Shown here: in pieces, positions 4,988-9,867 of the stretch | Layout of the letters: each line of letters opens with the position of its first letter | Numbering within the stretch: position 1 is the first letter of the stretch | Source: a virus | Lineage: Duplodnaviria > Heunggongvirae > Uroviricota > Caudoviricetes | Reading direction: 5' to 3' (one strand) | DNA: 64,000 nt | Virus record (IMG/VR): IMGVR_UViG_2609459800_000001 | The notes under the pieces: generated by a model | What the model saw: only the letters and a program-made list of their open reading frames with translations | The model's database searches: none | Told to the model about the DNA's origin: nothing | Position numbers and translations under genes: made by a program

Positions 4988-7248
4988 AAGAGCTGTGCTA
5001 TGGATCTGTTTGCAGTGGAATTGAAGCCGCGAGTATTGCCTGGGAACCGTTGGGTATGCGTCCGGCGTGGTTTGCTGAAATCGAGCCTTTTCCATCTGCC
5101 GTTCTTGCGCACCGCTGGCCCCATGTCGCCAACCTTGGCGACATGACAAAACTTGCCAAAAAAGTCCTGGCTGGGGAAATCGAATCCCCTGATGTGCTCG
5201 TCGGGGGTACGCCTTGTCAGGCATTCAGTATCGCGGGCTTACGTGGTGGGCTTGATGATGAACGCGGCGCGCTAACTTTGAAGTATGTGGAGCTTGCAAA
5301 TGCAATTGACGACAAACGGTCTGAGTCCTTCCTCAAACCGACAGTTATCGTCTGGGAAAATGTCCCAGGAGTCCTGTCATCGGCAGATAACGCCTTCGGA
5401 TGTTTCCTTGCCGGATTGGCTGGAGAAGATGCGCCATTTGAACCAGGTGATCGACCTGAATCAGGAAAAAGTAACGCGTTCTGGCGGTGGGATGGCAAAA
5501 CCGGTTGCCATGCTCCAAAGTGGCCGCAGTGTGGTTGTATTTATGGACCGCAGCGAAAGGTGGCCTGGAGAATCCTTGATGCCCAATACTTCGGAGTGGC
5601 ACAACGACGCCGACGCGTGTTTGTTGTCGCAAGTGCTCGAACAGACCTCGATCCCGCAACGGTACTTTTTGAGTTCGAAGGCGTGCGTCGGAATATTGCG
5701 CCGAGCCGAAAAAAGAAGGAAATCGCTTCCGCCATTATTGCAAATGGCGCTGCAATCAGTGGCGAAAGCCTAAATCCATGCCTACACGCTGACATGCCAC
5801 CCGGTATGAAATCGACGAAAGCCGTAAACGCTTTCAGGATGGCAGCATTTGGGGAATATATTGACGATGAAACCGCATCGACAGTAAAGGCAAGAGATTT
5901 TAAAGATGCCACTGACCTTGCCGTTTTTAGCAGCACAGGAGCAGGTTTTTGGTCAGAAGGGCATGGTACATTGCGGGCACGTGAGCAAGAAAGCCATGAG
6001 CATCTTGTTACATTGGCTTTTCCTGAGCGTATGAGCGGTACACAACATGCTGCAACTAAGAATACTTCACCATCTCTAATGGCTAAAAATCCAACAGCTG
6101 TTTGCTATGAAGTAAGAAACGCAGAAGTAGCTGTCCGCCGTCTTACCCCTGTTGAATGTGAAAGGCTGCAAGGTTTTCCTGATGGGCATACGTTGATCCC
6201 GACGGAAAAGCGTAAAAAAGTTAATTCAGATGAACTGGCATATCTTCGCAATCACTATCCAGATTTAAGCGAAGAAGAGGCCGCGATGCTTGCAGCTGAC
6301 GGACCGCGTTACAAAGCGATCGGCAATAGTATGGCAATACCAGTAATGCGCTGGATTGGCGATCGGATTACTAAGGCCGTATGTCGGCAGAAAGAAGGAA
6401 GTGAAACAAAAGAGCGAAAAGTTAAACCAGCGGCAGAATTCGAACGGTCCATATTCAAATGGGCTGGTGGAAAATTTGGTGTTCTGGAACAAATCTTTCG
6501 CTATTTGCCAGAAGGGAAGCGCCTGATCGAACCTTTTGTCGGTGGCGGAGCTGTCTTCACGAATGCCGGATACCAGGAAAATCTACTAAATGATGTGAAT
6601 GCTGACCTGATTAACTTTTACAAGACTCTGCAACGCGAGGCGCATTCACTTATCACACTGGCGCATCGTTTCTTCCAGGACTACAACACACAGGAAGGAT
6701 ACCTGGCAGTACGGAATGCGTTTAACAAACAAGTCTATGATGATTTACATCGCGCAGCGGCGTTTTTGTTCCTGAACCGACATTGTTTTAACGGATTGAC
6801 GCGTTACAACCAGGCCGGTGAGTTCAATGTCGGTTACGGGAAGTATAAAACTCCGTATTTCCCATTACAGGAGATGGAAGCCTTCCTCGGTGCGGAAGGG
6901 CGGTCTGAGTTTGTATGCGGTGATTTTGCAGCGGTGATTGAAGCTGCCGGAGAAGGAGATGTCATCTTTTGCGATCCGCCGTATGAACCGCTTCCAAATA
7001 CAGAGGGATTCACGAACTATTCCGGTCATGACTTTAAGTTTGAAGAGCAAAAACGCCTGGTGTCTCTGTTGACGGATGCTCATCGTCGAGGTGCAAAGGT
7101 TCTCATTACTAACAGTGGCGCGCCAAACATCAGAGAGCTTTATCATGACAGTGGCTTCAGAGTGGAACCTCTTTTTGCCAGACGTTCTGTGTCTTGTAAG
7201 GGGGACACTCGAGGTGTAGCTCATGACGTTTTGGGTGTATTGCTCTAA
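4984..7248 (+). CDS. dmt: bifunctional DNA methyltransferase (N-terminal C5-cytosine MTase-like, C-terminal Dam-like N6-adenine MTase)
   Basis: ORF track 754 aa; GTPCQAFS and ENV motifs N-terminally, DPPY motif C-terminally; size and position match P1 Dmt. Confidence 0.8.
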
Positions 7249-7255
7249 TAAATTT
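7239..7255 (+). promoter_or_regulatory. C1 repressor operator (perfect consensus), likely operator of the tRNA-tci-ban operon
   Basis: ATTGCTCTAATAAATTT overlapping dmt stop; next rightward genes are tRNAs, tciA, ban. Confidence 0.6.
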
Positions 7256-7920
7256 ATTAGTGTAATATCGCCTCAATGAATCGTGATTTATAGAGCGATT
7301 TAGCTGTTAGCCGCGACAGGCGCGGCGGTAAGCATGGCTGGGCCTAGTCCTCCCAGACAAACCACCGAGTTGCCAGGTTGACCATGCGCCTAAGTGGCAA
7401 CGCCGAAGTGCGTTACGAGCTTCCAGTTTGCCCATCTTCGGGTGGGCGTTTTTTTCAGGGTTTTCGTCATGGTTAGCGACTTTGCGGCGGTTTAGAAACT
7501 GACCATTAAAGTAAATGCAAACGATGATCTGATGATGGTAGCGGCCTAAGAAGCCAGATGCCACGGGGTATGAGTCGTCCCCCGTCAAAAAATCGACCGC
7601 AGAGTGTCCCCGTCTGTGTATTAGGGAACGGGGAGGCACAACAGGTAAGGGCGCTGGTGTGATTAACCAGATGAACGAGAAGGGGCCATCTGTTGGTCAG
7701 CGTCCTTTCCTGTTGCGTTTTCTTTTCAGCGTAACAGCGGTGCTTAACAGCACTTTGGGTACAGTTCCACGAATTTACGGGTATATCCCGTCATGCTGAA
7801 GGCGCTAATCACGCTGGAAGCCAGGGTTGTGCATCCCCTGTTACCGAATTGCAGCCAGGGCGCGGTGCGCCGAAAAGCATACGGAGGTGGAAGCCCTCGC
7901 CGGAGACGTACCCGGCAAGT

Positions 7921-7996
7921 GATGGTGTAGCTCAGCGGTTAGAGCGGTTGACTGTTAATCAACGGGTCGATGGTTCAAATCCATCCACCATCGCCA
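7921..7996 (+). tRNA. tRNA-Asn (anticodon GTT)
   Basis: Cloverleaf by hand: acceptor GATGGTG/CACCATC, anticodon loop CTGTTAA, T-loop GGTTCAAATCC, encoded CCA. Confidence 0.8.
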
Positions 7997-7998
7997 AT

Positions 7999-8074
7999 GC
8001 CGGTTTAGCTCAGTTGGTAGAGCGCCTGCCTTGTAAGCAGGATGTCAGCGGTTCGAGTCCGTTAATCGGCACCA
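7999..8074 (+). tRNA. tRNA-Thr (anticodon TGT)
   Basis: Cloverleaf by hand: acceptor GCCGGTT/AATCGGC, anticodon loop CTTGTAA, T-loop GGTTCGAGTCC, encoded CCA. Confidence 0.8.
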
Positions 8075-8660
8075 GCACAACAGGTAAGGGTATTTTGCGA
8101 CGTCGGAGATCGCCGAGCTTGGCAGAGGGTTCGAATCCCTACGAAGTACCCTTACCGTTGTGATGAAGTGCAGCTCTTTGAAGCAACCAGAAGATAAGCA
8201 TCTGGCTTCACAACATAAACCGCAGGAACGACCAATAAACGGTAGTCCGTATGGAGAACACCCCGTTGAGGAAGAGGCCTGGCCGGAACCGTAACCGGCA
8301 CTACAACGTTGAGAACACTGGCGTAACGGGGTCATATCCCAATCTACGAATAAATGTTGCGTTGCAGCGTGACAACCAGTGTTCTCAACATTGTGGTGAA
8401 TGCACAGGCTGATGTGCCGCAACTACAGTAGTGCGCGCTTTGCGGGGCTTGCTACAACCCTGTGTCGGAGTTCAGCACCGACCATCACAGTTTGATTCTC
8501 TGGCATGAGCATAACGCTGAAATAAGTCCAGTCTGGTGCGGCCCGATCACCCGCCGTTAGCTCCACGAAACGGAGCACGTAACAGGTAAGAGCATTCTCC
8601 TGTAACGGGTTCATATCCCAATCTACAGGTCCACCAGGAATGCTCTTTCCGTTGCGGTGA
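8075..8660 (+). repeat. noncoding region with diverged direct repeats, a 19-bp long-range inverted repeat and a tRNA-like remnant
   Basis: GTAACGGG(G/T)TCATATCCCAATCTAC at ~8323 and ~8601; AACAGGTAAG(G/A)G at ~8078 and ~8583; CAACGTTGAGAACACTGG (8304) pairs with CCAGTGTTCTCAACATTG (8377); acceptor-like GGTAAGG/CCTTACC around 8085-8160. Confidence 0.5.
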
Positions 8661-8805
8661 ATGCGGCTAAGCGCACGCGGGGAAATGGTTATATCTGTCC
8701 ATTATTTCTCCTTATTTCCCCGTCCACGGTGGATAACCAGCTAAAGGACACCGGGAAGCACCCGGCACCGCAACCTTATTTCCCAACCAGTAATGAGGTT
8801 AATAA

Positions 8806-9231
8806 ATGCTCGGCATTCTCAAAAAGAAATTCCGCAAAGCGGCTGGCGGAGTCAAGAAGATGGAAAACCGTGATGCGGTGGAAGCGACTGTCTGGGGCGC
8901 ATATTCCATTGCATACTCTGACGGCACCTGCGATGCGAAAGAAATTGCAGTATTGGAAAAAACCATTGCAGCACTTCCTGCCTTTGCGCCGTTCTCCGGT
9001 GAAATTGCCCAGATGAGCGCCAATATTCGCGCTCAATATGAAGCCTCGCCGCGCCGAGCGAATGCCCAGGCTTTACGTGAACTGGCTGACGTGTCTGGAA
9101 CTAATGATGCGGTAGATGTTCTGTGCCTATGCATTGATATTGCTGACCAGGATGGCATTGGGGCAGAAGAGCAGGAGCAATTGAAGAAAATTGCCCAGGC
9201 TCTTCAATTGCCACTGGAACAGTATATCTGA
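8806..9231 (+). CDS. TerB-like protein (P1 tciA position)
   Basis: ORF track 141 aa; acidic TerB-like sequence; located between tRNA cluster and ban. Confidence 0.5.
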   Translation: MLGILKKKFRKAAGGVKKMENRDAVEATVWGAYSIAYSDGTCDAKEIAVLEKTIAALPAFAPFSGEIAQMSANIRAQYEASPRRANAQALRELADVSGTNDAVDVLCLCIDIADQDGIGAEEQEQLKKIAQALQLPLEQYI

Positions 9232-9395
9232 TGGTTATAAAAGCACGTCTAATTCTGGCTTTGGTTTTTCTCGTGCTATCTGTGCTGGTGGATTTCACCA
9301 GCACAATCCTGTCGGTTTTATCCGACGGGGCGTTGGTAGCAGTAGCTGTAACATTGGTATGGCCGATATTAAAAACAGCTTCTAAGGATCAGTGA
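9231..9395 (+). CDS. small hydrophobic membrane protein (54 aa)
   Basis: ATG overlaps tciA stop; MVIKARLILALVFLVLSVLVDFTSTILSVLSDGALVAVAVTLVWPILKTASKDQ; below ORF-track cutoff. Confidence 0.35.
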   Translation: MVIKARLILALVFLVLSVLVDFTSTILSVLSDGALVAVAVTLVWPILKTASKDQ

Positions 9396-9502
9396 TGGGC
9401 TTCTGGGATTTTGCTGACAAGCATCCAATTGTTCTCGTTGTCATTGCTGGCATAGTTGTGGGCGGTATTGCTGGCGTCATAGAAGCACTCAGGAAACAGT
9501 AA
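9395..9502 (+). CDS. small hydrophobic membrane protein (35 aa)
   Basis: ATG overlaps previous stop; MGFWDFADKHPIVLVVIAGIVVGGIAGVIEALRKQ. Confidence 0.3.
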   Translation: MGFWDFADKHPIVLVVIAGIVVGGIAGVIEALRKQ

Positions 9503-9505
9503 TCC

Positions 9506-9581
9506 GGCCCTTTAGCTCAGTGGTTAGAGCTGGCGACTCATAATCGCACGGTCACCGGTTCAAGTCCGGTAGGGGCCACCA
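9506..9581 (+). tRNA. tRNA with CAT anticodon (Met or lysidine-modified Ile)
   Basis: Cloverleaf by hand: acceptor GGCCCTT/AGGGGCC, anticodon loop CTCATAA, T-loop GGTTCAAGTCC, encoded CCA. Confidence 0.75.
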
Positions 9582-9867
9582 TATTTGGTTGTAACACGGC
9601 GTCTGGCACATGCGTCGTTAGCGGTCTGGTGACGTTAAAAGGGGGGAACCTTGCCCCTAGCTCAGGCAACGAACCAGGTAGCCGGAATGTGCAAGCCACC
9701 GTTTGTTGTTTCTCGGGTAAAGGGATTCACCATCCTGGCGATTCGGTGTGACAGCCGGGAAGAGTCCGGCGCATTAATCCTGATTTTCTGGTGATGACTC
9801 ATATCGTTAGGAGTGATTTGAGTATGCCGATTATATCTGACATTCAGCACGCCTGGGTGGAGTGCTA

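Follow-up and report, generated by a model that had tools for sequence, protein, structure and literature searches.

In P1-like phage-plasmids, tciABC is one of eight hypervariable regions; its role has been stated to be unclear, and it is missing from about half of the subgroup-1 elements (PMC9603915). A genome-wide CRISPRi screen found tciA, tciB, tciC and trnI to be non-essential for P1 plaque formation (PMC10695390), and a transcriptome preprint reports that the tci genes are expressed during P1vir infection. The P1 record places them in the order tciA, tciB, tciC, trnI, ban, and the annotations of both P1 and P7 put the tci genes under the operator Oban. The closest described protein families are the TerB domain, known from the terZABCDE operons of tellurite resistance and phage inhibition, and DUF3927, a family of small membrane proteins of enterobacterial prophages whose description holds no function. 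TerB proteins are associated with the inner membrane.

The stretch of DNA analysed here (the window) is 64,000 nt long and derives from bacteriophage P1. Over positions 8700-9900 (1201 nt) it is 99.8% identical to AF234172, AF234173 and NC_005856, and its tciB and tciC coordinates map one-to-one on AF234172 70658-70822 and 70822-70929. A sequence-only reading of the window had proposed two hydrophobic ORFs of 54 and 35 aa after a TerB-like gene, each with an ATG overlapping the preceding stop and the second ending 3 bp before a CAT tRNA. Coordinates and hydropathy bear this out: TGATG is found at both junctions, and ARAGORN places the tRNA 3 nt beyond the tciC TAA in the same orientation. Calling the pair tciB/tciC-like proved literally right, as both proteins are 100% identical to P1 TciB and TciC (AAQ14045.1 and AAQ14046.1). 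The two ORFs are P1 tciB and tciC themselves, and the finding was already known; the scan yielded a true positive, the rediscovery of two annotated P1 genes at a locus that is not itself new. The coordinates of the locus are collected in the table.

Table. Features of the tci locus and its operator (window coordinates)
Feature	Position	Strand	Description
Divalent C1 repressor operator Oban/Op72ab with ban promoters	7239-7266	+	Consensus match; annotated Obanab/P1ban/P2ban of AF234172
tciA Shine-Dalgarno GAGG	8795-8798	+	Reading of the upstream sequence
tciA	8806-9231	+	141 aa, soluble TerB-domain protein; annotated tciA in P1
tciA/tciB junction TGATG	9229-9233	+	Stop TGA 9229-9231 overlaps ATG 9231-9233, shared A
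tciB	9231-9395	+	54 aa, predicted DUF3927 membrane protein
tciC Shine-Dalgarno AAGGA	9384-9388	+	6 nt 5' of the ATG, within the tciB 3' end
tciB/tciC junction TGATG	9393-9397	+	Stop TGA 9393-9395 overlaps ATG 9395-9397, shared A
tciC	9395-9502	+	35 aa, predicted single-pass membrane peptide; stop TAA ends at 9502
tRNA, anticodon CAT (P1 trnI, ileX-like tRNA-Ile2)	9506-9581	+	ARAGORN; Rfam tRNA 64.7 bits

The exact TciC sequence is public as AAQ14046.1 (P1) and AAQ07541.1 (P7 Upf69.6), and at least 1000 contigs carry it. P1 tciB/tciC and P7 upf69.4/upf69.6 specify the same proteins in the same position, with the same overlaps and neighbours, and represent one locus without a sequence difference. 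The adjoining trnI bears the note 'tRNA-ile2 (CAT), 89 pct identical to ileX' in the P1 annotation. Both ORFs are shorter than the 60-aa default of the ORF listing, which gives tciC as 36 aa from a GTG at 9392 instead of 35 aa from the ATG. With lengths below this default, the statement of the sequence-only reading that the ORF track had missed both is plausible. Annotation of tciC is absent from every RefSeq/PLSDB plasmid record sampled; RefSeq/PGAP thus omits the gene in the sampled P1-like plasmids, though its frame is intact in nearly all of them.

This omission is one of several points in favour of reading one or both ORFs as untranslated, either as frames that are open by chance in a transcribed tRNA leader or spacer, or as the complement of a real antisense ORF (9382-9480, minus strand). 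ORFs of 35-54 aa are also frequent by chance, with 275 ATG-initiated ORFs of 30-60 aa within the window, and the exactly antisense frame is open in relatives too. Against the chance background, hydropathy sets the pair apart. The tciB and tciC products have GRAVY values of 1.49 and 1.03, their highest Kyte-Doolittle scores over 15 aa are about 3.0, and only three of the 275 small ORFs are equally hydrophobic. Because two of these three are the adjacent tciB and tciC, the hydrophobic pair is real and not a chance pattern. The third (15105-15284, minus strand; 59 aa, GRAVY 1.35) lies within essential tail gene 7, on the same strand and out of frame, and is probably a chance ORF.

The frames are also conserved. 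A related-locus search with a narrow alignment (A3) gave mostly P1-like contigs, a set that fits a population test and is unsuited to a wider test of tRNA adjacency. In each of the 63 P1-like viral contigs, tciB has 54 aa and tciC 34-35 aa, the junction reads AGTGATG and the tRNA spacer is 3 nt. With tblastn, an in-frame TciC of full length was found in 277 of 278 plasmid records. The copies belong to two distinct alleles with 74% identity, the P1 type (about 158) and the SJ46 type (120). The proposal that the pair encodes real small membrane proteins, made from the sequence alone, withstands this comparison of frames in both viral contigs and plasmids.

Substitution patterns carry the argument further. 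Diverged pairs of tciB have a dN/dS of 0.25-0.36; comparison with the most diverged copy, on the Salmonella plasmid pN17S0016-2, gives a dS of 1.14 and a dN of 0.29, with 18, 10 and 26 differences at the three codon positions. The P1-group alleles of tciC differ by 14 substitutions and no indels. Of the nine resulting amino-acid changes, every one exchanges residues within the set V, I, A, G, S or replaces H by Y. Their omega of 0.5-0.8 is uninformative at some 14 substitutions, so the coding question for tciC is decided by deeper lineages. The pN17S0016-2 copy (MMDFWTYIDKNPGW...NLRRRK) overlaps the tciB stop, the copy in plasmid pTB423 reads MDFWAFADKNPGW...ALRGSGKKRKRN, and both end 9 nt before the same tRNA as in P1. 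Between these two copies pN is 0.19 vs a pS of 0.76, and omega between P1 and an unrelated contig (L061) is 0.33. Relatives at 30-45% identity have MxFWxFxDKxP in common and are under purifying selection. Both frames thus persist, under purifying selection, in much more diverged lineages.

Such selection on the sense frames speaks against an untranslated spacer, as do a protein motif that persists at some 30% amino-acid identity, where DNA identity has dropped to some 40%, the full-length Pfam match of tciB at 106 bits, the invariant junctions and the good Shine-Dalgarno sequence of tciC. An open antisense frame is to be expected wherever a sense strand avoids TTA, CTA and TCA. The antisense ORF at 9382-9480 was rejected: it is open in relatives, but its amino-acid changes are non-conservative (P to L, C to Y, T to I), whereas those in the sense frame are V/I/A/G/S swaps. 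An ORF in the +2 frame (9191-9385), which overlaps tciB, was also rejected, with stops in P7, SJ46, L006 and L008. It is therefore extremely improbable that either ORF is untranslated. Judged by their evolution, both are very probably translated, and tciB and tciC are genuine, conserved genes that encode small hydrophobic proteins.

In the window, tciA, tciB, tciC, tRNA(CAT) and ban form one co-oriented string, with the C1-repressed ban promoter/operator about 1.5 kb upstream. The C1 operator consensus has 16 matches in the window vs 0.25 expected by chance; at Oban, a perfect match (7239-7255) meets an inverted copy (7250-7266), and this region is likely to be the transcription start of the operon containing tciABC. 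No terminator-like site was found on the plus strand from tciA to ban. A sigma-70 consensus scan of 7100-9950 returned no site and missed even the annotated Pban, so it is uninformative on internal promoters. Upstream of tciB a good Shine-Dalgarno sequence is absent, and tciB is therefore probably translated by coupling to tciA. Overlapping or abutting TerB-DUF3927 junctions recur in other lineages.

Several further features surround these genes. A strong terminator-like hairpin with a T-run (7426-7448, plus strand) lies in the 'dicF-like' region of P1 (about 7364-7465), between the C1-controlled ban promoter and the tRNA and tci genes; no Rfam DicF match was reported there at E<=0.1. The unannotated spacer of about 170 nt between the tRNA and ban (about 9596-9764, plus strand) is some 81-88% identical to intergenic DNA of unrelated phages (phiV10, TL-2011b and Stx2c phages), and its phiV10 counterpart is an unannotated gap among head and packaging genes. 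This spacer matches no Rfam family, and shuffled versions of it fold equally well (z=-0.39). The 3' end of the minus-strand plp (8045-8422) overlaps the plus-strand tRNA-Thr (7999-8074) by 30 nt (8045-8074). The tRNA content also varies: P7 (L003), pN17S0016-2 (L005) and pTB423 (L009) additionally carry a tRNA-Ser(TGA), which the window lacks, and pTB423 has tRNA-Arg(TCT) where P1 has tRNA-Asn (varying positions L003 1687-1773; L005 682-768; L009 393-469 and 1013-1099).

The slot upstream of tRNA(CAT) in P1-like plasmids accommodates interchangeable cargo. In pTB423 (NZ_CP034790, L009 1374-1502) it contains a lone 42-aa TciC-like gene, in p1493-4 (NZ_CP019075, L010 546-1482) an overlapping pair, a hydrophobic 42-aa ORF followed by the gene of an SPFH-domain protein, and in others the TerB-DUF3927-TciC trio. 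Mosaic boundaries are very sharp around tciB/tciC in SJ46 and P7. In SJ46, tciC carries 14 substitutions (window 9395-9502 vs L002 2196-2303), tciB differs at only four positions, near its 3' end, and tciA and the tRNA match P1 at every position. In P7, a diverged TerB allele gives way to P1-like sequence inside the first 60 nt or so of tciB (window 9231-9290 vs L003 2470-2530).

TciB is a full-length DUF3927 protein (PF13064; E=7e-31, 106.4 bits against a cutoff of 25, residues 2-54 on model positions 1-53 of 53) and also matches phrog_1470. TciA scores 28.4 bits against Pfam TerB (PF05099; cutoff 24.4) and matches phrog_632 at E=7e-62. A search for DUF3927 returned 892 related clusters, mostly from Escherichia, Salmonella, Klebsiella and Citrobacter. 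In an alignment of 23 sequences, R6, D21-F22-T23, S28, D32 and P45 of TciB are invariant, and the hydrophobic core is bounded by conserved basic residues on either side. Since basic residues lie on both sides, a hairpin with cytoplasmic ends (N-in/C-in) and an acidic D21/D32 loop outside is suggested; AF2 instead gives one continuous 51-residue helix (2-52, pLDDT 89.5).

The most consistent property of DUF3927 is its neighbour. A TerB-domain gene lies immediately upstream in nine of ten lineages or independent contexts, which comprise the P1 type, the P7 type, pN17S0016-2, two Stx/lambdoid prophages, SSU5-like plasmids, the lambdoid phages Evi and Klebsiella phage 5, the virulent N4-like Pollock and a metagenomic contig. 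The upstream proteins have about 141-150 aa (one is cut at a contig end), the junctions usually overlap or abut, and the partners in eight lineages other than P1 score 26-60 bits for TerB. The exception is phage 434, in which DUF3927 follows a 247-aa protein without a TerB match. With a TerB gene directly upstream in nine of ten lineages, TciB is probably the membrane partner of TerB. No TerB-DUF3927 fusion protein was found among the best 120 of the 892 clusters, so there is no Rosetta-stone support for TciA-TciB. The partnership of these two proteins in particular is put forward tentatively from gene order, as a possibility that falls somewhat short of even chances.

The pair also has recurring wider surroundings. 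In the two Stx/lambdoid prophages the order is methyltransferase, tRNAs, TerB, DUF3927 and holin, and in Evi and Klebsiella phage 5 the pair sits between Q and the lysis genes. A DNA methyltransferase, tRNAs in some cases, TerB and DUF3927 recur in E. coli prophages (L011, L013) and SSU5-like plasmids (L012, L014), an order that mirrors dmt-tRNA-...-tciA-tciB in P1 and suggests that a mobile module extending beyond the tci genes is shared. Directly upstream of tciA, positions 8653-8772 (plus strand) give a sub-threshold match to the Rfam sRNA family STnc100 (33.4 bits, gathering 47; E=7e-5), and STnc100 may be a 5' leader of TerB-like prophage genes.

This context bears on an alternative, in which TciB, TciC or both are stand-alone membrane-active effectors and TerB is a modulator or antidote. 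Such effectors could be toxic or depolarising peptides, or act in division arrest or lysis timing (Hok/TisB-like or holin/antiholin-like). Both products are very hydrophobic helical peptides of effector-typical size, the lambdoid pairs stand directly upstream of holin genes in the late operon downstream of Q, the P1 annotation mentions 'inhibition of cell division', and C1 represses the operon in the lysogen. However, separate holins are annotated next to the lambdoid pair, and no lysis gene occurs among the annotated P1 neighbours from dmt to dbn; the neighbours in P1 are tRNAs, plp/upl and ban, and with all three genes non-essential for plaques the features of a holin or antiholin were not found. 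CRISPRi knock-down without an effect on plaque formation (PMC10695390) likewise speaks against an effector role. Type I toxins typically come with an antisense RNA or a dedicated promoter, and weak scans of the region found neither a promoter-like site nor an Rfam antisense RNA family. The near-obligatory adjacency of DUF3927 and TerB also favours partnership over a stand-alone toxin, and overall an effector role appears unlikely. A search of TciA, TciB and TciC against the PADLOC-DB 2.0 defence families gave no match at E<=1. With this blank result and no other ter gene nearby, the names referring to tellurite resistance, colicin resistance and cell division are best taken as homology labels.

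TciC belongs to a family of its own. P1 TciC has an N-terminal MxFWxFxDKxP, a TM helix at 11-34 and a basic C-terminus, and in the AF2 model (pLDDT 91.5) a short helix (3-9) and a second one (11-34) are separated by a break at His10, directly ahead of the conserved Pro11. Under the positive-inside rule, the acidic N-terminus and basic C-terminus suggest an N-out/C-in orientation. Relatives were collected with the 42-aa pTB423 copy as query, and a profile of P1 TciC and ten relatives of 42-45 aa was searched against 1.84 billion representative proteins. This returned about 20 full-length diverged proteins of 34-49 aa. Common to them are a single hydrophobic helix and the motif M-x-[FL]-W-x-F-x-[DSN]-x-x-P, and a basic tail is usual; at least 90% of the family sequences retain W4, F6 and P11. 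Long multi-stretch matches (e.g. P0025 and P0026) were rejected as repeat or hydrophobic false positives. P0025 and P0026 have 160-283 aa, with repeated LLIVPYGIET and FNCTLWNWN units separated by variable stretches, and look like translated DNA repeat arrays.

The genomic contexts of the TciC family are early or replication regions of phages. For example, one TciC-like gene lies beside ThyX, AAA_24 and DNA polymerase A, another amid small early ORFs with an HNH gene, a third adjoins RusA, and a fourth is next to an HTH regulator gene and a 240-aa ORF without a known family. Only once, on a metagenomic contig, was a TciC-like gene found downstream of TerB-DUF3927-tRNA-Gln.

These contexts help to weigh the possibility, implied by the original P1 annotation, that TciA, TciB and TciC form one three-subunit complex with TciC as an accessory to the TerB system. 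Overlapping stop and start codons couple all three genes in an arrangement that is invariant in the P1 group, the same three-gene order occurs in the diverged Salmonella plasmid, and the metagenomic contig just mentioned has TerB, DUF3927, a tRNA and a TciC-like gene together. Nevertheless, TciC-like genes occur without tciA/tciB in unrelated phage early regions and in pTB423, where the lone ORF precedes the same tRNA as in P1. Conversely, the TerB-DUF3927 pairs of L011-L014 lack any TciC-like ORF, and no TciC-like third ORF was found at TerB-DUF3927 loci outside the P1 group (lambdoid, SSU5-like, N4-like). SJ46 shows a tciC allele that was exchanged on its own, without tciA and tciB. Genetically, tciC can be separated from these two genes, and their coupling and co-location are not proof of one functional unit. 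A three-subunit complex is improbable on this evidence, and functional independence of TciC is the reading to which we lean with some confidence.

A different tie would link this family of 34-49-aa single-pass phage peptides functionally to phage tRNA genes and not to TerB. In all 63 P1-group contigs, 3 nt separate the tciC stop from the RNase P cleavage site of tRNA-Ile2; two other lineages have a spacer of 9 nt, and a tRNA occurs within 400 nt in five of the eight lineages sampled. If such a tie existed, 5' processing of the tRNA would cut the mRNA behind the stop codon and couple TciC output or tmRNA tagging to tRNA maturation; alternatively, peptide and tRNA would travel as one mobile cassette. 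We regard this functional tie as very improbable.

In the explanation we prefer, the tci genes would be transcribed once C1 repression lifts, tciB would be translated by re-initiation from tciA, and tciC would use its own AAGGA site. TciB would most likely be an inner-membrane helical hairpin with both ends cytoplasmic and the invariant acidic D21/D32 loop outside, and would serve TciA, the soluble TerB-domain protein, as its dedicated partner or anchor in the membrane. Together, TciA and TciB would constitute an accessory module of two genes (a 'moron') that changes the envelope or the stress physiology of the host and is dispensable for lytic growth. TciC would be a separate accessory single-pass peptide, with its short acidic N-terminus outside and its basic C-terminus inside: not a third subunit, but a member of a wider phage peptide family that occurs with or without TerB/DUF3927 and is packed against the tRNA 5' end in P1-like elements. 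Taken as a whole (coding genes, a TciA-TciB accessory module and a separate TciC), this explanation seems slightly better than an even prospect.

Compared with described systems, what is new here is modest: the TerB-DUF3927 pairing rule, the finding that the TciC family is broad and separable, and the lack of tciC in the sampled RefSeq plasmid annotation. TciC is a full-length member of phrog_23152 (E=3.4e-27, residues 1-35 of 35), whose function is not described, which has no Pfam family and for which no published description was found; this phrog matches 16 of the 22 diverged members of the TciC family. The curated libraries searched give no description of this broader family of phage membrane peptides, and as far as we can tell there is no earlier account of its MxFWxFxDKxP motif, its breadth or its independence of TerB/DUF3927.

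The TerB domain is common to TciA and the TerB of the ter operons, but the locus differs in that the partner of tciA is a 54-aa DUF3927 protein and the other ter genes are absent. Neither terC, terD, terZ, terA nor terE was found among the annotated neighbours in the P1, P7, SJ46, plasmid and prophage loci examined, and with these genes missing around the locus tellurite resistance cannot be assumed for tciA. With DUF3927 and phrog_1470, TciB shares the invariant DFT...S...D(G) core and P45; to a family description that gives no function, the present analysis adds a near-obligatory place directly after a TerB gene. DUF3927 may accordingly be described as a candidate dedicated small membrane partner of phage TerB-domain proteins, a role from which a concrete hypothesis would follow for the accessory module of two genes that is common among enterobacterial prophages, those of Stx type included.
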